The notes under the pieces: model-generated
The model's input: the letters and a program-made list of their open reading frames with translations, nothing else
Told to the model about the DNA's origin: nothing
Database searches by the model: none
Shown: in pieces, positions 3,021-44,297 of the stretch
How the letters are laid out: the number at the start of each line of letters is the position of its first letter
Numbering within the stretch: position 1 is the first letter of the stretch
NCBI RefSeq assembly: GCF_963921235.1
Contig: NC_086108.1
Coordinates: 18,600,001 to 18,664,000, forward strand
Reading direction: 5' to 3'
From: Mobula hypostoma
Lineage: Eukaryota
Length of the DNA stretch: 64,000 nucleotides
Translations under genes and position numbers: made by a program

Positions 3021-3455
3021 ATCATCCTGTCCACACCTACTCTGTCTAGGCCTTTCAACATTTGAAAGGTTTCAATGAGAACCAAAGCCCATCCTTCTAA
3101 ATCCCAGAGCTATCAAATGTTCCTCGTATGATAACCCTTTCATTCCTGGAATCATCCTTGTGAACCTCCTCTGGACCCTCTTTGCCAGCATATCTTTTCT
3201 GAGATGAGGAACCCAAAAGTATTTACTGTTTCAAATTGAGGCCTCACCACTGCCTTATAAAACCTCAGCATCACATCCCTGCTCTTGTATCTTAGAGCCC
3301 TTGAAATGAAGTCTAACATTGCATTTGCCTTCCTCACCACCAACTCAATCTGCAAGTTAACCTTTTAGGTGTTCTGCACAAAGACTCCCAGTACAGTGAC
3401 TTTAGAGATGGACTTCCAGATGCATTAAAGGTCAGGCTTGTAAGTGGCATGTATA

Positions 3456-3695
3456 ACTTCTTCGAGCGCAAGAAGGACGAGACTGCACAGGCGTGTGACG
3501 TCAACAGGACAGCGCAGAGAGTTTAAAAAGGAAGGTTGCTACCAACGGCTGTCTTTTGGATCGGGACTACAGAGCGTCATGGGAGCTGAATTCTGAAGGA
3601 AGGCAGTTTTATAAAAAAACTTCTTCGAGTGCAAGAAGGACGAGACTGCGCAGGCACATGACGTCAACAGGACAGCGTGGAGAGTTTAAAAGGGA
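3456..3695 (+). promoter_or_regulatory. Putative CR1 internal promoter made of two tandem monomers
   Basis: ~75-bp block at 3456 repeated at 3619; each has an NRF1-like TGC(A/G)CAGGC, a perfect CRE TGACGTCA and TTTAAAA. Confidence 0.55.
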
Positions 3696-3988
3696 GACCA
3701 CCCTATACAGCGGGCAGCTGTCAGAACGGGCAGCGGAGTAAGTGGGAGCAGAGTGTAGGGCTTTGGCTTCAACGGGCTTTGGTGGTAAACGGGAAGAGGC
3801 GAGAGCGAAGCACCAACTCTTTTTTTTTCTCCCCCACCCCCTTTCGTGAATCAGCCCGGACAGACAGGAACAGCAGGGCTCTCACAGCTAATGGTACAAC
3901 CTAACGGTTTAAAAAGTTCATTTGTTTGGCGAGGTAAGTGGGTGAGTAGACTTATTTTTCCTGTTTCATTCCTGTAGAATTAGATAGC

Positions 3989-4924
3989 ATGCCTGCAGGG
4001 TTAGTGCTTTATTCAGGGTGTCAGATGTGGGAATCCTGGGAGACCTCCAGCCCCCCTGATGGCCACATCTGCGCCAGGTGCACCGAGATGCAGCTCCTCA
4101 GAGACTGTGTTAGGGATCTGGAGCTGCAGCTTGATGACCTACTGCTTATCAGGGAAAGTGAAGAGGTGATAGACAGAAGCTACAGGGAGGTAGTCATCCC
4201 TAGGCTACAGGGGTCAGAAAACTGGGTCACTGTCAAGAGAGGGAAGGGAAATGCCCAGATAGTGGAGAGCACACCTACGGCTGTCCCCCTCAGCAACAAA
4301 TATCTTGTTCTGGATGCTGTTGAGGGGGATGACCTGATAGGGGATGCCCACGGTGACCAGGTCTCTGGCAATGAGCCTGGCGCTGTTGAGCAGGAGAGAA
4401 GGAGGGAGAAGAGAAATGTGGTAGTCGTAGGGGATTCCATAGTCAGGGGAACAGACAGGAGATTCTGTGAGCCTGATAGAGACATCCGCATGGTGTGTTG
4501 CCTCCCAGGTGCCAGGGTATGGGATGTCTCGGATCGGGTCCTGAATATTCTGAAGGGGGAGGGTGAGCAGCCAGTTGTCTTGGTACATGTTGGTACCAAT
4601 GACATAGATAGGACAAAGGAGGAGGTCCAGAAGAGAGATTTCTGGGAGTTAGGAAGGAAGCTGAGAAGCAGGACCTCCAGGGTAGAAATTTCAGTATTGC
4701 TACCTGTGCCACGTGCTAGCGAGGGCAAGAGTAGTAGGATCAGGCAGATGAATGCGTGGCTGAGAGACTGGTGCAGGGGACAGGGCTTCAGATTCTTGGA
4801 TAATTGGGATCTCTTCTGGAGGAAGTATGACCTGTTCAAAAAGGACAGGTTACACCTGAACCCGAAGGAGACAAATATCCTGGCGGGAAGGTTTAATAGA
4901 GCTGTTAGGGAGGGTTTAATCTAA
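3989..4924 (+). CDS. CR1 ORF1 protein (zinc finger/leucine zipper plus SGNH esterase-like domain), intact reading frame
   Basis: 311 aa; HICARC then heptad Leu repeat; VVGDSIVRG, VHVGTNDI, DRLHLN esterase blocks. Confidence 0.9.
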   Translation: MPAGLVLYSGCQMWESWETSSPPDGHICARCTEMQLLRDCVRDLELQLDDLLLIRESEEVIDRSYREVVIPRLQGSENWVTVKRGKGNAQIVESTPTAVPLSNKYLVLDAVEGDDLIGDAHGDQVSGNEPGAVEQERRREKRNVVVVGDSIVRGTDRRFCEPDRDIRMVCCLPGARVWDVSDRVLNILKGEGEQPVVLVHVGTNDIDRTKEEVQKRDFWELGRKLRSRTSRVEISVLLPVPRASEGKSSRIRQMNAWLRDWCRGQGFRFLDNWDLFWRKYDLFKKDRLHLNPKETNILAGRFNRAVREGLI

Positions 4925-7907
4925 TTTGGCAGGGGGATGGGAACCGGAATGACAGAGCGGAGAAAGGGGTAAACAGAAATAAATCTAAGATAGTGAACAG
5001 TAAAGATGTCAGGAAAGACAGGCAGGTGATGGGGCAAATTTGTAGCCATTGGGATGAGTTGCAGTGCAATACAGTCGCAGTGAAATCAAAGGGAAAAGTA
5101 CCAAATACTGGTCTTAAGGTGTTATACTTAAATGCACGCAGCATAAGGAATAAAGTGGATGATCTTGTCGTACAGCTACAGATTGGCAGGTATGATATTG
5201 TGGCCATCACTGAGACATGGCTAAAGGATGCATGTCTCTGAGAGCTGAACGTCCAAGGATACACGGTGTATCAGAAGGATAGGAAGGTAGGCCAAGGGGG
5301 AGGTGTGGCTTTATTGGTAAGAAATGATAGTAAATCGTTAGAAAGAGGTGATATAGGATCGGACGGTGCAGAATCTTTATGGGTTGAGCTAAGAAATTGC
5401 AGGGGTAAAGGGACCCTGATGGCAGTTATTTATAGGCCTCCAAACAGCTGCAGGGATGTGGACTACAAATTAAAACAGGAAATAGAAAAGGCTTGTTAGA
5501 AAGGCAGTGTTATGATAATTGTGGGGGATTTTAACATGCGAGTGGATTGGGAAAATCAGGTCGGCACTGGATCTCAAGAGAGAGAATTTGTAGAATGTCT
5601 GCGAGATGGTTTTTTAGAACAGCTTGTTGTTGAACCCACTAGGGGATCGGCTGTACTGGATTGGGTATTGTGTAAGGAACCAGAGGTGATTAGAGAGATT
5701 GAGGTGAAGGAACCCTTAGGAGGCAGTGATCATAACAAGATTGAGTTCACTGTGAAATTTGAAAAAGAGAAGCCGAAATCTGATGTCGCTATTTCAATGG
5801 AGTAAAGGAAATTACAGTGGCATGAGAGAGGAACTGGCCAAAGTTGACTGGAAAGAGACACTGGCGGGAAAGACGGCAGAGCAGCAGTGGCTGCAGTTTA
5901 TGTGAGAAGTGAGGAAGGTGCAAGACAGGTATATTCCAAAAAAGAAGAAATTTTCAAATGGAAAAAGGATGCAACCGTGGTTTGACAAGAGAAGTCAAAG
6001 CCAAAGTTAAAGCAAAGGAGAGGGCATACAAGGAAGCAAAAATTAGTGGGAAGACAGAGGATTGGGAAGTTTTTAAAACCTTACAAAAGGAAACCAAGAA
6101 GGTCATTAAGAGGGAAAAGATTAACTATGAAAGAAAGCTAGCAAATAATATCAAAGAGGATACTAAAAGCTTTTTCAAGTATATAAAGGATAAAAGACAG
6201 GTGAGAGTAGATATAGGACTGATAGAAAATGATGCTGGAGAAATTGTAATGGGATATAAGGAGATGGCCGAGGAACTGAAAGAGTATTTTGCATCAGTCT
6301 TCACTGAGGAAGACAGCAGGATACCGGACACTCAAGGGTGGCAGGGAAGAGAAGTGTGCAAAGTCACAATTACGACAGAGGAAGTACTCAGGAAGCTGAA
6401 TAGTCTAAAGGTAGATAAATCTCCCGGACCAGATGGAATGCACCTACGTGTTCCGAAGGAAGTAGCTGTGGAGATTGCAGAGGCATTAGCGATGATCTTT
6501 CAAAAGTCAATAGATTCTGGCATGGTTCCGGAGGACTGGAAGATTGCAAATGTCACTCTGCTATCTAAGAAGCGGGCAAGGAAGCAAAAAGGAAATTATA
6601 GACCTGTTAGCTTGACATCGGTGGTTGGGAAGTTGTTGGAGTCGATTGTCAAGGATGAGGTTACAGAGTACCTGGAGGCATATGACAAGATAGGCAGAAC
6701 TCAGCATGGATTCCTTAAAGGAAAATCCTGCCTGACAAACCTATTACAATTTTTTGAGGAAATTACCAGTAGGCTAGACAAGGGAGATGCAGTGGATGTT
6801 GTATATTTGGATTTTCAGAAGGCATTTGACAAGGTGCCACACATGAGGCTACTTAACAAGATAAGAGCCCATGGAATTATGGGAAGGTTGCATATGTGGA
6901 TAGAGCATTGGCTGATTGGCAGGAAACAGAGAGTGGGAATAAAGGGATCCTATTCTGATTGGCTGCCGGTTACCAGTGGTTTTCAACAGGAGTCCGTGTT
7001 GGGGCCGCTTCCTTTTACATTGTACACCAACGATTTGGATTATGGAATTGATGGCTTTGTGGCTAAGTTCGCTGACGATACGAAAATAGGTGGAGGGGCC
7101 GGTAGTGCTGAGGAAATGGAGAGTCTGCAGAGAGACTTGGATAGATTGGAAGAATGGGCAGAGAAGTGGCAAATGAAGTACAATGTTGGAAAGTGTATGG
7201 TTATGCACTTTGGCAGAAATAATAAATGGGCAGACTATTATTTAAATGGGGAAAGAATTCAAAGTTCAGAGATGCAATGGGACTTGGGAGTCCTCATACA
7301 GGATACCCTTAAGGTTAACCTCCAAGTTGAGTTGGTAGAGAAGAAGGCGAATGCAATGTTGGCATTCATTTCTAGAGGAATAGAGTATAGGAGCAGGGAT
7401 GTGATGTTGAGGCTGTATAAGGCACTGGTGAGACCTCACTTGGAGTACTGTAGGCAGTTTTGGTCTCCTTATTTAAGAAAGGATGTGCTGACATTGGAGA
7501 GGGTACAGAGAAGATTCACTAGAATGATTCCGGGAATGAGAGGGTTAACATATGAGGAACTTTTGTCCGCTCTTGGACTGTATTCCTTGGAGTTTAGAAG
7601 AATGAGGGGAGACCTCATAGAAAGATTTCGAATGTTGAAAGGCATGGACAGAGTGGATGTGGCAAAGTTGTTTCCCATGATGGGGGAGTCTAGTACGAGA
7701 GGGCATGACTTAGGGATTGAAGGGCGCCCATTCAGAACAGAAATGCGAAGAAATTTTTTTGGCCAGAGGGTGGTGAATCTATGGAATTTGTTGCCACGGG
7801 CAGCAGTGGAGGCCAAGTCATTGGGTGTATTTAAGGCAGAGATTGACGGGTATCTGAGTAGCCAGGGCATCAAGGGTTATGGTGAGAAGGCGGGGGAGTG
7901 GGACTAA
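4909..7907 (+). pseudogene. CR1 ORF2 (APE endonuclease plus reverse transcriptase), disrupted in the 5' third
   Basis: YLNARSIRNK, ITETWL, YRPP, GDFN, SDH motifs; 649-aa open RT segment 5958-7907 with DFQKAFDKV and FADDTK; stops near 5239, 5497, 5903 and frameshifts near 5790 and 5970. Confidence 0.92.
4915..4921 (+). promoter_or_regulatory. Candidate -1 frameshift heptamer (T_TTA_ATC, one change from T_TTA_AAC) at the ORF1/ORF2 junction
   Basis: In phase with ORF1 and directly before TAA; the -1 frame opens at 4909 after TAG and runs LIWQGDG... into the endonuclease. Confidence 0.55.
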
Positions 7908-10151
7908 ATGGGAGAATGGATCAGCTCATGATAAAATGGTGGAGCAGACTCGATGGTCCTAGTGGCCGACTTCTGCTCCTTTGTCTTATGGTCTTATGGT
8001 ATAGTCAAAACACTCAAAAGAAGCTATTATTGGAAAGAGGCCGACCTTAAAATGGGCATTGGATACAGCAGAACTACAGAAAAGGAGGTTAGAAATTGAA
8101 ATGCACAAAATATCCCTGAATGGTGCAAAAAGCCAAAGATGTTATCGATGTGGCAAATTCTTCCATAGTGTAAATAACTGTTGGTTCAAAGAAAAAGTCT
8201 GCAGAAAGAGCCACAGACAAGGTCACAGGGAGAGAATGAGCAAGGCAAACAGAAAGCACAACCGAGTAAAAAGTCTCAAACACAAAACTAAGCAAATGCA
8301 TAAAGTAACCAAATGTAAAACAGAATCAGACACCATAGAGTCTGACGAAGGTGAACTGGTATGCCTAGAATCGCATAGTACAACTGAAGCAGAATACAAG
8401 ATCATCTGGATCACAATAGATGTGTCCAGTGTAAAACTGAAAATGGAGCTGGACACAGCGTCAGCTTTGTCTATAATTTTAGAGGCTGACTACAACAGAT
8501 TGTTTTCTAAGCTACATCAGAGAAGACCTCAGTGATGCTAAAGACCCACACAGGTTGAAAAGTGTCTCCCAAATACAAACTGAAGGTATATTTAATATAT
8601 GGAGGCCAAACACAGAAGTTAGAGCTTTACGTATTGAAAAGCGACAGTAATTTGTGGACAAGAGTGGTTGAGAAAAATCCAACTAGACTGGCACTCAGTA
8701 AAAGCTGTCAGTGTGTTATCAACAGGCAAAGGCAACCCAAATGGTAGTACTAACCAAAGGCTGTCACAGCGGCTTAATGCTAATCACCTGTTTAGAAGAT
8801 GTTTGAGAAGTGAATAGATAAACAGATCGAAGACTTGGCCAAAAGCTGTTCGGAATGCCAAAAAGTTCGAAATGCACCTCCCTGGCTCTGTTACACCCAA
8901 GGGTGTGGCCTTCTTCACCATTGCAAAGAGCACATATTAACTTTACTGGGCCATCCATGGACTCCATGTTTCTGATTGTTGTGGATGCTCATTCAAAGTG
9001 GCTGGAGGTTATACCAATGAAATCAACCAACTCAGCAGAGACTGTCTCCGCTCTGAGGATTATCTTCACCAGAAACGGCTTATCAGAAGAAATTATGAGT
9101 GAGTGACAATGGACCACAATACACATCAGAAGAATTTTGACTGTTCATGAAGAAAAATGGCACCAGACATTTCAAGTCAGTTCCTCACCACCCAGCAATG
9201 AATGGGTTAGCTGAAAGGTATATCCAAACCTTCAGGTAGTCTATTAAAGTGATGGACAAGGAGGATGTTTCTCTACAGCATAAGGTGGACAACTTCCTTT
9301 CTGTATATCGGAACTCTGTTCATGTAATGACAAATCAAACACCTGCAATGCTGCTCATGATCAGGAATCTGAGACCTTGCATAAAGCTCCTGGATCTAGA
9401 CCTCCAGAGGGAAGTGTAGAATAAACAGTTCAGCTAGTTGCCAGGTGAAGCGGCGAGGAGCTTCTGGACTGGACCAGAAATCCTAGCACATGATTACCAA
9501 GAAGACAAGTGGACACCCGGTAGGATAGCTAGAAGAACTGGACCACTGGTGTACACAGCGGATGTTGGAGATCCGACATGGAGACATCATGTGGACCAGG
9601 TACTGGATGCTCAACCAAAAGACACACCTGAGTCAACTGCATCCAACACGATGGACACATTGCAGTCACTGGGACTTACCCCTCAGTGATGATGTCACTC
9701 ACAGCAAGGTGACACCGGAAACCAAGAACGTTGTATCTGACAAGACACCTACCAAACCCAATGCCACTCCACAGGTCCAGAGGCACCATCCTGAAAGAAA
9801 CAGAGCACCACCCAAAAGACTGAACCTTTGGAACTGTGAAGATGGTTGTGGACTGTTATTATGAAAGCATGTTTGTTTGAAATATGAGTTGATGAAAGGG
9901 AAACCAAATGTTTTGTACATATACAGCTTTATGTTGCATTAATCTAAAGGGGGAGGAAGTGTAGTGTATTAATCTATTTCTTTTAGAGCAATGACCCCAC
10001 CTGCCCCCCCAGCACTATGTATTGATCTGTTGTCTATATATGTGCTTTGTTCTCTTTCTCTCTCTCACTGCAATGTGAGTACACTAGTTAAAGCTATCTC
10101 CCGCATCTGTGCTTTTATTTAATCAATATGTAGTTGTGCACAGACACAACA

Positions 10152-11235
10152 ATGCCTTCCCCAGAAGATATCCCAATGATCTGAAAATCTGTAATCCTGC
10201 CCCCTGCACCACTTCCTCAGCCACTCATTCATCTGTACTCACTGTGCACTCCTTCCCCTTTGTACCTATACATTTGTGCCAACGTGCACCACAAACTCTG
10301 GCTGCTTACTTTCTTGAGAATCTTTTCAGCCACTCTGAGACAGCTTAGACCCGAGCACCTGTAAGGCAACACAGCATTGAGGCTTTTCTTCAGTGGCCAC
10401 AGAATCTGTCTCCCTAAGTACTGAATCTTTTAACACCACTGCTCTATCAGACTTTACCTTTCCCTTCTAAGCCTTAGAACTAGCTACAGTGTCATTGGCC
10501 TGGCTGCTGCTGTGCTCTGATAGATCATATTGACCAGCAGTACTCAAAGGGGTACACTTGTTGCTGAATGGAATGGTCACAGGGTAACCCTGCAATGACT
10601 GCATACTCCCCTTACTTCTCCTGATCGTCATGCATCCACTACTTGAAGCCTGCCCTCTGGATGTGCTATCTCAGTAAAAGACTCACCCATGAAGTTTTCA
10701 GCCTACCAGATGGTCCTGAGTGCATCTATTTCCAGCTCCTGTTGCTTGATCTTGCCAGTCAGGAGCTGAAGTTGGGTGCACTTTTTGCAAATGTAGTCAT
10801 CAGGAAGACTGCTAGGTACCCTGAGTTATCACTTCCCACAAGTGCCAGATCTGCCATCCTGACTACACTTGTTATGCCTCTAACATCTCAAACTTAAGTT
10901 CAAGCCTCTGCCTGTTCTTCTCAAAGCCTGTCGAGCCAAAGCCGGACCACTTCAACACTGGCCCATTCTAACAATGACAGCTCCACTTAAACCTCATTTC
11001 TTCTAATTGGCTCTTGCTATGTTATTTTAACCCAAGAAACCTCCTGCTCTGTAGACTAGTTCCAAGAGGCCTCACTCACTTTTTAAAACTGGTGTGCGAA
11101 GTCCACAAGGAACTGTCTCCAACTCACTCCGTGATCTTCCACTCTGCAGACGTCTCAACAGGCCACACTTTCTTTTTATATCTAGTTCCATCTCCCGAGC
11201 AGATTGGAGAGAGGCCAAAAAGTGGTAGTAGGTAG
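10152..11235 (-). mobile_element. Old CR1 ORF1/5' UTR remnant
   Basis: Reverse strand reads RFSDHWDIFWG and resembles the esterase region of 3989-4924; heavily decayed. Confidence 0.6.
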
Positions 11236-40842: not shown

Positions 40843-43800
40843 ATAGAACAGAGAACATAGAAAAGTACAGCACAGTACAGGCCTTTCAGCCCACAATGCT
40901 GTGCCCACCCTCAAACCCTGCCTCCCATATAAGCCCCCAACTTAAATACCTCCATATACCTGTCTAGTAGTCTCTTAAATATCATGAGTGTATCTGCCTC
41001 CACCACTGACTCAAGCAGTGCATTCCACACACCAACCACTCTCTGAGTAAAAAACCTTCCTCTAATATCCCCCTTGAACTTCCCACCCCTTACCTTAAAG
41101 CCATGTCCTCTTGTACTGAGCAGTGGTGCCCTGGGGAAGAGGCGCTGGCTATCCACTATCTATTCCTCTTATTATCTTGTACACCTCTATCATGTCTCCT
41201 CTCATCCTCCTTCTCTCCAAAGAGTAAAGCCCTAGCTCCCTTAATCTCTGATCATAATGCATACTCTCTAAACCAGGCAGCATCCTGGTAAATCTCCTCT
41301 GTACCCTTTCCAATGCTTCCACATCCTTCCTATAGTGAGGCGACCAGAACTGGACACAGTACTCCAATTGTGGCATAACCAGAGTTTTATAGAGCTGCAT
41401 CATTACATCGCGACTCTTAATCTCTATCCCTCGACTTATGAAAGCTAACACCCCATAAGCTTTCTTAACTACCCTATCTACCTCTGAGGCAACTTTCAGG
41501 GATCTGTGGACATGTACCCCCAGATCCCTCTGCTCCTCCACACCACCAAGTATCCTGCCATTTACTTTGTACTCTGCCTTGGAGTTTGTCCTTCCAAAGT
41601 GTCCCACCTCACAATTCTCCAGGTTGAACTCCATCTGCCACTTCTCAGCCCACTTCTGCATCCTATCAATGTCTCTCTGCAATCTCTGACAATCCTCTAC
41701 ACTATCTACAACACCACCAACCTTTGTGTCATCTGTAAACTTGCCAACCCACCCTTCTGCCCCCACATCCAGGTCGTTGATAAAAATCACGAAAAGTAGA
41801 GGTCCTAGAACAGATCCTTGTGGGACACCACTAGTCACAATCCTCCAATCTGAATGTACTCCCTCCATCATGACCCTCTGCCTTCTGCAGACAAGCCAAT
41901 TCTGAATCCACCTGGCCAAACTTCCCTGCATCCCATGCCTTCTGACTTTCTGAATAAGCCTACCATGTGGAACCTTGTCAAATGCCTTACTAAAATCCAT
42001 ATAGATCACATCCACTGCACTACCCTCATCTATGTGCCTGGTCACCTACTCAAAAATCTATCAGGCTTGTTAGACATGGTCTTCCCTTCACAAAGCCATG
42101 CTGACTGTCCCTGATCAGACCATGATTCTCTAAATGTCCAGAGATCCTATCTCTAAGAATCTTTTCCAACAGCTTTCCCATCACAGACGTAAGGCTCACT
42201 GGTCTATAATTACCCGGACTATCCCTACTACCTTTTTTGAATAAGGGGACAACATTCACCTCGCTCCAGTCCTCTGGTACCATTCCCGTGGACAACGAGG
42301 ACATTAAGATCCTAGCCAGAGGCTCAGCAATCTCTTGCCTCGCCTCGTGGAGCAGCCTGGGGAATATTCCGTCAGGCCCCGGGGACTTATCTGTCCTAAT
42401 GTATTTTAACAACTCCAACACCTCCTCTCCCTTAATATCAACATGCTCCAGAACATCAACCTCACTCATATTGTCCTCACCATCATCAAGTTCCCTCTCA
42501 TTGGTGAATACCAAAGAGAAGTATTCATTGAGGACCTCGCTCACTTCCATAGCCTCCAGGTACATCTTCCCACCTTTATCTCTAATCAGTCCTGCCTTCA
42601 CTCCTGTCATCCTTTTTTTCTTCACCTAATTGAAGAATGCCTTGGGGTTTTCCTTTACCCTATTTGCCAAGGCCTTCTCATGCCCCCTTCTGGCTCTTCT
42701 CAGCCCCTTCTTAAGCTCCTTTCTTGCTTCCCTATATTCCTCAATAGACCCATCTGATCCCTGCTTCCTAAACCTCATGTATGCTGCCGTTTTCCACCTG
42801 ACTAGATTTTCCACCTCACTTGTCACCCATGGTTTCTTCACCCTACCATTCTTTACCTTCCTCACCGGGACAAATTTATCCCTAACATCCTTCAAGAGAT
42901 CTCTAAACATCGATCACATGTCCATAGCACATTTCCCTGCAAAAACATTATCACAATTCACACCCGCAAGTTCTAGCCTTATAGCCTCATAATTTCCCCT
43001 TCCCCAATTAAAAATTTTCCTGTCCTCTCTGATTCTATCCTTTCCCATAATTCTAAAGACCAGGGAGCGGTGGTCACTGTCCCCCAGATGCTCACCCACT
43101 GAGAGATCTGTGACCTGACCCAGTTCATTACATAGTACTAGATCTAGTATGGCATTCCCCTGAGTCAGCCTGTCCACATACTGTGACAGGAATCCATCCT
43201 GGACACACTTAACAAACTCTGCCCCATCTAAACCCTTGAAACTAATCAGGTGCCAATCAATATTAGGGAAGTTAAAGTCACCCATGATAACAACCCTATT
43301 ATTTTTGTACCTTTCCAAAATCTGCCTCCCAATCTGCTCCTCTGTATCTCTGCTACTACCAGGGGGCCTATAGAATACCCCCAATAGAGTAACTGCTCCC
43401 TTCCTGTTCCTGACTTCCACCCATACTGACTCAAAGGAGGTTCCTGCTACATTACCCATGCTTTCTGTAGCTGTAATAGTATCCCTGACCAGTAATGCCA
43501 CCCCTCCTCCCCTTTTTCCGCCCTCTCTATCCCTTTTAAAGCACTGAAATCCAGGAATATTGAGAATCCATTCCTGCCCTGGTGCCAGCCAAGACACTGT
43601 AATGGCCACTACATCATAATTCCATGCATGTATCCAAGCTGTCAGTTCATCACCTTTGTTCCTGATGCTTCTTGCATTGAGGTACACACATTTCAGCCCT
43701 TCTACCTTACTGTCTTTACACTGTTTGTTCTGCTTCTCTTTCCTCAAAGCCTCTCTATATGTTAGATCTGGCTTATGTTAGATCTGGCTTTACTCCATGC

Positions 43801-44297
43801 ACTTCTTTCACTGCTCTATCACTCTGGGTCCCATCCCCCTCGCAAATTAGTTTAAACCCTCCCGAACCATGCCAGCTAACCTACCTGCAAGGATATTGCT
43901 CCCCCTCGAGTTCAGGTTCAACCCATCCAATCTGTACAGGTCCCACCTTCCCCAGAAGAGATCCCAATGATCCAAAAACCTAAAACCCTGCTCCCTGCAC
44001 CAACGCCTCAGCCACACATTCAACTGCCATCTCCTCCAATTCTTATCATCTCTGTCACGTAGCACTGGCAGCAATCCTGAGAACGTCACCCTTGAGGTCC
44101 TGTTCTTCAGCCTTCTGCCTGGTTCCCGAAACTCACACTTCAGGACCTCATCCCTCTTCCTGCCTATGTCGTTGGTCCCAACATGTATCATGACTTCTGA
44201 TTGCTTTCCCTCTTGTACCAGGATGTCGTGCACCCAGAGACATCCCGGACCCTGGCACCCGGGAGGCAACAAACCATGCGGGTGTCCTTCTCACGAC
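40843..44297 (-). mobile_element. CR1 LINE truncated within ORF1, ORF2 near-complete but disrupted
   Basis: ORF1 end 43847-44272 (HVGTNDIG..EGLN*); endonuclease 42914-43747; RT 41149-42625 (DFSKAFDKV, GVPQGSVLGP, FTDDTK); tail at 40843. Confidence 0.95.
43850..43856 (-). promoter_or_regulatory. Candidate -1 ribosomal frameshift heptamer U_UUA_AAC at the ORF1/ORF2 junction
   Basis: Minus strand GAG GGT TTA AAC TAA; X_XXY_YYZ in correct phase; -1 frame leads into the endonuclease with no AUG once a 16-bp duplication is removed. Confidence 0.65.

Follow-up and report, generated by a model that had tools for sequence, protein, structure and literature searches.

The DNA analyzed here, a 64,000-nucleotide stretch of the Mobula hypostoma genome (contig NC_086108.1, positions 18,600,001 to 18,664,000; referred to as the window), contains a near full-length but decayed copy of a CR1 long interspersed nuclear element (LINE) on the plus strand at positions 3989–7907. 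This element, copy A, encodes an esterase in its first open reading frame (ORF1) and an APE endonuclease followed by a reverse transcriptase (RT) in ORF2. The junction of the two frames, read together with the junctions of related elements, suggests that the active ancestors of vertebrate CR1 elements probably used programmed −1 frameshifting to produce an ORF1-ORF2 fusion protein, a reading well backed by comparison between elements. As a single copy the junction is ordinary; it is interesting as a family signal. Copy A itself is dead and non-functional, because its ORF2 contains three stops (5239, 5497, and 5803) and changes frame ahead of 5913, and it is of interest solely as a witness to its family.

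ORF1 of copy A (plus strand, 3989–4924) starts with the ATG at 3989, codes for 311 amino acids, and ends in GAG GGT TTA ATC TAA, as an earlier note on this DNA had read it. The stop codon TAA (4922–4924), which is TAG or TGA in relatives, directly abuts a slippery heptamer at 4915–4921 that reads T_TTA_ATC in copy A and T_TTA_AAC in the family. The −1 frame is closed by a TAG at 4906–4908, which confines the overlap of ORF1 and ORF2 to 4909–4924, and is open from 4909 through the motif LKVLYLNARS (5113–5142) up to a first stop at 5239; here too the letters agree with the earlier reading. At the ORF1 stop the −1 frame reads CTA (Leu), and it continues through a variable linker (4925–5112), with 69 codons between the stop and the LNARS motif. 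A G-rich motif at 4932–4941 is made up of GGGGG (4932–4936), located at +11 after the heptamer, followed by AT and by GGG (4939–4941), and includes an out-of-frame ATG at 4937. A second heptamer, G_GGT_TTA (4912–4918), overlaps the first. It is intact in both LINE copies of the window that include the junction, and it is missing in the six outside loci tabulated, where GCT or TGT is found. The family heptamer T_TTA_AAC follows the X_XXY_YYZ pattern in the 0 frame, and copy A, with T_TTA_ATC, retains G_GGT_TTA. Both strands of the window together contain 17 TTTAAAC sequences; two are followed by a stop, and one, in the second LINE copy (copy B), has GGGGG at +11.

Contigs from four public runs, which carry codes for four organisms, were aligned to 4760–5200 at 80% likeness. 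Position 4920 reads A in 94–97% of the contig depth in all four runs (93.8, 96.9, 96.6, and 95.5%), and the family heptamer is therefore T_TTA_AAC followed by TAA. The earlier note had asked whether ATC is a private mutation of AAC, and the runs show that it is; a family consensus with ATC was not found. In run X1, a near-fixed difference like the one at 4920 occurs in 10 of the 40 variant positions listed (the best 40 of 92), so that ATC is one of many private changes in copy A. None of the best 40 of 92 falls at 4925–4944, although a position missing from this set is not proof of invariance. The summed contig depth is maximal at 4910–4939 in three of the four runs, counting both bins, and loose contig ends reveal another abundant subfamily that has the junction in common and diverges directly after it.

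The strong evidence for selection on the junction lies outside the window. A search of metagenome contigs with an esterase alignment, using patterns distant from the junction, gave 63 loci. From these, 28 were dropped because the profile match ended before position 280 or because the stored DNA held no stop; two of the 28, L001 and L030, were read by eye and counted. Seven of the 63 are vertebrate-type loci that reach the end of ORF1, and six of the seven (L001, L002, L004, L007, L009, and L030) contain the exact TTTAAAC. The stop after the heptamer is TAG in four loci and TGA in one, and it is lost in L030. The endonuclease lies stop-free in the −1 frame in copy A, L001, L002, L007, and L009, after linkers of 69, 87, 50, 36, and 60 codons, respectively; this continuation is broken in copy B by a 16-nucleotide duplication and in L030 by an indel. 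TTA accounts for 0.11 of the Leu codons, AAC for 0.42 of the Asn codons, and T for 0.18–0.30 of third positions, and an x-Leu-Asn lineage is expected to show TTTAAAC by chance in about 1 of 100 cases (~0.01). Four-fold degenerate sites match between the ray and the outside loci at chance level (7–12 of 29–39), yet the ray and the outside loci all keep TTA AAC, the preceding T, and the GGG. These loci and the ORF1 tails described below support the proposal of the earlier note that selection acts on the junction at the nucleotide level. No relatives were found in viral contigs or in plasmids. The sole pattern match in viral contigs (L065) falls within an unrelated ORF and was discarded as a chance match, and one weak match in genome contigs (L064) is unrelated.

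Among 150 ORF1 esterase representatives at 50% identity, 114 reach the end of the esterase, and the other 36 were left out. The tails of 59 fit U_UUA_AAC, those of 10 fit G_GGA_AAC, and those of 3 fit A_AAA_AAC, each followed by a stop (72 of 114), and 158 of 18,880 internal tripeptides (0.8%) fit the three heptamers. The available part of a review (PMC5009743) counts all three among the four heptamers on which mammalian ribosomes shift most. After 50% clustering, 10 of 19 clusters have a compatible majority. The tail following the DGLHL motif is 24–41 residues long. An NNT codon is available for the residue preceding LN in 83 of 85 unique tails, and for position −4 in only 45 of 85. GN is preceded by Q in nine cases and by S in one, and KN is preceded by S or G. 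A 22-member clade, with a Shimodaira-Hasegawa-like approximate likelihood ratio (SH-aLRT) value of 99 in a quick tree, has LN, GN, and KN ends. The proteins P0226, P0227, P0233–P0236, P0238, P0239, P0241, P0267, P0281, P0296, and P0302 belong to one esterase ORF1 clade and end in QGN, SGN, SKN, or FLN; some sister rows end in FFR. This suggests an exchange among G_GGA_AAC, A_AAA_AAC, and U_UUA_AAC in the P0226 clade, which is known from proteins alone. Two shark- or ray-type LINE ORF1/ORF2 proteins, P0019 and P0122, are labelled as bacterial (Pseudomonas aeruginosa and Carnobacterium maltaromaticum), which is likely due to host contamination of the assemblies.

Copy B lies on the minus strand and is 5′-truncated. 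Its junction (43835–43861) consists of GAGGG, TTTAAAC (43856–43850), TAA (43849–43847), and GGGGG (43839–43835). The duplication in its linker is a tandem repeat of 16 nucleotides (43759–43790) that breaks the frame; with one unit counted, the −1 frame contains no stop and no Met across 54 codons. The conserved junction that the earlier note saw in both copies is evident from 4910, where copies A and B are identical at 31 of 35 nucleotides, and eight upstream ORF1 windows show 23–28 of 35. Its description of the rest of the linker as unalignable holds only past ~4980 (12/35 and 7/35), whereas the first 35 nucleotides beyond the junction still match at 22. As a result from this pair alone, the identity peak is modest (binomial P ~0.013), and it is not from this pair that the strong evidence for selection comes. 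Copies A and B agree at 15 of 26 four-fold sites in the esterase, at 10 of 38 in the endonuclease, and at 17 of 61 in the RT, and they have 56 of 90 third positions of late ORF1 in common. Because four-fold sites are saturated in the ORF2s and not in the esterases, the ORF1s and junctions of the two copies may have a more recent common ancestor than the ORF2s. The inference that the earlier note drew from the two copies is weakened to this extent, as they are not fully independent lineages at the junction. Compared with each other, 4540–4980 on the plus strand and 44230–43790 on the minus strand look as if an ORF1-plus-junction module had been swapped between ORF2 lineages, with the breakpoint in the linker.

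The G run at a fixed distance is the part specific to the present finding. Five or six G residues start exactly at +11 in seven of eight junctions (copies A and B, L001, L002, L007, L009, and L030). For the outside loci alone, a run of at least five at +11 is present in five of six, with varying flanking residues; L004 ends too early to show it. Read in the −1 frame, the run takes in the last base of a Q, E, K, or S codon, all of a Gly codon (GGG), and the opening base of a D, E, or G codon. Of 284 Gly codons in the CR1 elements compared, 86 are GGG, and the probability of the run arising by chance is ~0.003, a rough value for three independent outside lineages at 0.15 each. On these figures the run is kept at the nucleotide level, and amino acid constraint alone is no explanation. 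The earlier note had considered that constraint on the protein might account for the G run entirely; with synonymous positions kept, this was not borne out.

Three ways in which the G motif might act were tried and rejected. A G-quadruplex as a general stimulator is predicted in copy A only (one of six junctions), and natural G-quadruplex stimulators of frameshifting are not known according to the available part of the review (PMC5009743). Long-range pairing of the motif was set aside for now; the best partners are pyrimidine-rich patches at non-homologous positions in each element. For a calicivirus-type UGGGA tether, the UGGGA is on the 3′ side of the stop, and the outside loci do not have it.

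In the proposed mechanism, most ribosomes would terminate at the ORF1 stop codon and release the ORF1 protein (ORF1p). A minority, with UUA in the P site and AAC in the A site, would slip back to pair with UUU and AAA, take CUA as the next codon, and continue into an ORF1-linker-endonuclease-RT fusion, as in Gag-Pol. For rays, the overlapping G_GGU_UUA, intact even in copy A, would offer a second possible slip site. A pause might arise from the abutting stop together with the G run, a speculative step to which we give slightly less than even credence. The run would lie close to the mRNA entry channel, and its effect could come from binding to a protein or to the ribosome; that it serves as a frameshift stimulator is a tentative assignment, close to evenly balanced. 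In a wider scheme, esterase-ORF1 LINEs including CR1 would make their RT as a recoded fusion, alternating between U_UUA_AAC, G_GGA_AAC, A_AAA_AAC, and UGA-C, and vertebrate CR1 would add a new, structure-free stimulator, made of the abutting stop and five unstructured G residues exactly 11 nucleotides downstream, that binds a host protein, ORF1p, or the entry channel. Taken as a whole, this scheme is possible, but we regard it as doubtful.

Several observations weigh against frameshifting or against parts of the proposed signal. Canonical −1 signals usually carry a structure, and no stable 3′ structure was found when the 40–100 nucleotides downstream were folded in six junctions (z from −2.0 to +1.2), in agreement with the earlier remark that no hairpin is obvious 3′ of the slip site. 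The folding was done with ViennaRNA, which models no pseudoknots, on copies that are decayed, and weak structure remains compatible with these values. The outside vertebrate-type junctions are just seven, and some of them are related (four-fold identity up to 32/62). L003 does not have the exact heptamer, and its G run is just GGGG, starting from +12; L030 lacks both the stop and the −1 frame. We read these two loci as decayed. Copies A and B are only partly independent witnesses at the junction. In the ORF1 tails, 42 of the 114 representatives end in no compatible tripeptide, and 9 of the 19 clusters have a majority without one; the GN and KN cases are known from protein only, and some may be Penelope-like or other elements. 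Most copies of the subfamily to which copy A belongs probably have an AUG at 5029, and in L001 and L002 an AUG comes two codons beyond the slip site.

These start codons bear on the alternative that ORF2 is translated separately, with a linker AUG (e.g. 5029) or a near-cognate codon overlapping the stop used as the start by termination-reinitiation or leaky scanning; the heptamer would then be a relic or have another role. We consider this unlikely. The in-frame AUG that the earlier note had placed near 5028, upstream of the endonuclease, is present at 5029–5031, where G at −3 and +4 gives it a strong context and where it overlaps a TGA of the 0 frame at 5027–5029 (TGATG). No variant affects it among the best 40 of 92 listed, with the same proviso that a missing position is not proof of invariance. 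A short 0-frame ORF from the ATG at 5006 ends in this TGA, a stop-start shape that may be chance. The AUG of L001 and L002 directly follows the stop, and UAAUU resembles a UAAUG stop-start. Mammalian LINE ORF2 is also thought to use an unusual AUG-independent initiation, according to the available part of PMC5009743. On the other hand, three out-of-frame AUGs (4937, 4949, and 5006) precede the one at 5029 in copy A, the first of them inside the G motif, and the positions of Met scatter between linkers: L009 has none in 60 codons, copy B has none with one duplication unit, and L007 has Met at codons 20 and 22. Conservation of the AUG, about which the earlier note had cautioned, thus probably holds within the subfamily and fails across subfamilies. 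No AUG overlaps or adjoins the ORF1 stop in copies A and B, L007, and L009, the codon overlapping the stop varies by locus (ATT, GGT, GAT, or AAG), and predicted ORF2 N termini, which are gene-caller choices and uncounted, show no conserved start position. Nor does reinitiation predict that TTTAAAC is fixed at synonymous positions or that it has apparently been exchanged with GGGAAAC and AAAAAAC. Alongside frameshifting, use of an AUG may be a subfamily-specific extra route to ORF2.

Constraint on the protein combined with descent, in which Leu-Asn forms the end of the esterase helix, ORF2 begins with Gly-x-Gly, and the nucleotides match through inheritance and not selection, is very unlikely. 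In its favor, the 56 of 90 third positions common to copies A and B mean that some of the junction identity is inherited, L170 does not vary in alignment A1, and the DNA sample is small. This reading is contradicted by the outside loci, in which TTA AAC, the preceding T, and GGG are all kept with four-fold sites at chance. The solved ZfL2-1 esterase ends in RLLRTI, and its fold therefore does not need Leu-Asn; xN-stop is found at differing tail lengths, and a Gly-x-Gly upstream of any AUG would itself require translation from the junction. A change of frame at the RNA or DNA level, by polymerase slippage that adds a base or by splicing, is more improbable still. The available part of PMC5009743 raises effects of G-quadruplexes on transcriptional realignment as a possibility, but the longest homopolymer at the site is 3, the motif obeys the tRNA re-pairing pattern X_XXY_YYZ, and no indel at or above 5% is listed in the four DNA-type runs, though inserted RNAs would enter the genome. 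A further alternative competes with the stimulator step only and leaves frameshifting itself in place: the G run may be kept for another RNA function, such as binding of heterogeneous nuclear ribonucleoprotein (hnRNP)-type proteins, splicing control, or packaging, while the stop or an undetected long-range pairing drives the slip. The usual spacer between slip site and stimulator is 5–9 nucleotides, and the run at +11 lies beyond it; there is also no conserved fold or G-quadruplex, and the long-range partners are at non-homologous places. However, the distance is exactly 11 nucleotides in seven of eight junctions while the linkers span 36–87 codons, and such rigid spacing is typical of a ribosome-coupled signal. 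We regard this other function as a genuine possibility, though we lean against it.

More distant relatives point to readthrough at the same junction. Thirty non-vertebrate-type loci reach a stop; 10 without a detected endonuclease motif were left out and 20 were counted. The endonuclease is in frame with ORF1 in 18 of the 20, and follows TGA-C in 16 (CTA, CCA, CCC, CCT, or CAT). The in-frame linkers are stop-free in 15 of 18 and contain 33–131 codons, and L017, L026, L031, and L042 have no Met in about 70 linker codons. The readthrough-type junctions are those of L016, L017, L022, L025, L026, L029, L031, L035, L040, L042, L049, L050, L056–L059, and L061; L016 has TAG-G in frame instead of TGA-C. 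L034 (420–470) has a −1 overlap with T_TTT_TTA at the end of the esterase and a Met-free linker of 61 codons. Most of the distant loci form one family with roughly 50–100% identity, to which L016, L017, and L034 are unrelated, and several run on into an RT. UGA-CUA is the type II readthrough context of alphaviruses, according to the available part of PMC13517186, and it matches the in-frame UGA-CUA of several of these LINE relatives, not the junction in the window. A stimulatory structure was mostly not found in the readthrough-type loci (one of nine, L022, with z < −3). Because the distant relatives place another recoding signal, UGA-C, at the same junction, these comparisons suggest that the ORF1-ORF2 fusion itself is what is conserved. 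Natural in-frame esterase-endonuclease-RT proteins were also sought; the 20 long candidates look like gene-model chimeras, and none was accepted.

The early CR1 papers of Haas in 1997 and Kajikawa in 1997 reportedly describe closely spaced or overlapping ORFs, and Kajikawa and co-workers are said to have proposed in 2012 that ORF2 of zebrafish ZfL2-1 arises by suppression of the ORF1 stop. ZfL2-1, an L2 element with an esterase ORF1 (4c1b), has an esterase homologous to that of copy A, but its ORF1 ends without Leu-Asn, and in-frame readthrough is reportedly proposed there as opposed to a −1 shift here. A full-text literature search gave no report of a CR1 frameshift signal in the text available; an older mention is quite possible, and supplements or Repbase notes may bear on it. 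In the accessible parts of PMC13343379, PMC4120745, PMC4316615, and PMC3905857, the term frameshift was not found and the mode of ORF2 translation in vertebrate CR1 is not stated. PMC11835228 mentions frameshift, in its available part, solely for avian leukosis virus subgroup E (ALV-E), and the available parts of PMC5006619, PMC8226300, PMC5408684, and PMC3880073 hold nothing further on the CR1 junction.

Vertebrate CR1 elements with an esterase ORF1 are like copy A in having two ORFs, an SGNH ORF1, and APE and RT domains in ORF2 (available parts of PMC13343379 and PMC4316615). Coronavirus −1 frameshifting at U_UUA_AAC and retroviral gag-pol are similar in heptamer class, short overlap, and an enzyme ORF in the −1 frame, as far as the available text of PMC5009743 goes. 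In contrast to these, CR1 has no predicted pseudoknot or stable hairpin, and instead an abutting stop and a G run at a fixed distance. Stimulation by a protein is described in the same text for PRRSV, with nsp1beta and PCBP (PMC5009743). The Dictyostelium elements TRE5-A and TRE3-A are APE-type LINEs that require a −1 frameshift for ORF2 (PMC5911963, available part), as proposed here, but they are amoebal, target tRNA genes, and have an unrelated ORF1. In two-ORF Penelope-like elements, ORF1 can be set apart by a frameshift with a pseudoknot (PMC8557442, available part); these are another class of retroelement with a GIY-YIG nuclease, and no pseudoknot is predicted in CR1.

CR1-group elements are the dominant retrotransposons in most vertebrate species, according to the available part of PMC13343379, and ORF2 translation in LINEs besides mammalian L1 has been little tested. 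If frameshifting is used, RT would be made as an esterase-endonuclease-RT fusion at a set ratio, a retrovirus-like route that brings RT into the particle. The annotation of ORF2 would change, and CR1 elements would be exposed to host anti-frameshift factors. A G run that works without structure would be a new kind of natural frameshift stimulator. The junction signal is ~30 nucleotides long, small enough for standard reporters.

The esterase of copy A occupies the C-terminal part of ORF1 (~4493–4867). It matches PF13472 (E 9e-12) and is homologous to the solved ZfL2-1 esterase 4c1b (E 1.5e-27), and it separates from ZfL2-1-like rows in a quick tree. The closest named protein to ORF1 is from the stingray Hypanus sabinus (83%). 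The APE endonuclease domain (5113–5790, −1 frame) matches PF03372 (E 1.3e-13, stops read as X), and the remaining ORF2 (5913–7907), which includes the RT and differs in frame from the endonuclease, matches PF00078 (E 2.7e-26). Copy A thus has the features of the CR1 group, an SGNH esterase in ORF1 and an APE endonuclease followed by an RT in a decayed ORF2; the CR1 label is based on relatives of ORF1 found in turtles, lizards, and birds, together with motifs known from CR1. A search of 3400–8100 against Rfam gave no match. The 3′ end of the element is near 8000, where there is a short TCTTATGG repeat.

Upstream of ORF1, two direct repeats of 78 nucleotides (plus strand, 3455–3532 and 3618–3695), 90% identical and offset by 163 nucleotides, each contain a TGACGTCA site that resembles a cAMP response element (CRE). 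Judged from their sequence and position, the repeats at 3455–3695 probably represent the 5′ leader or promoter of copy A. GTAAGT sequences that resemble splice donors occur at ~3738 and ~3935, and just before the ORF1 ATG there is a tract of pyrimidines that ends in CTGTAG; these signals in 3735–3980 may mark an intron in the CR1 leader. On the minus strand, 10152–10813 holds a third ORF1 esterase fragment, which is more divergent and is truncated before the junction. Directly after copy A, an open frame (8005–8535) and the following sequence to 9400 have, by eye, the look of a decayed long terminal repeat (LTR)-type protease/integrase fragment.

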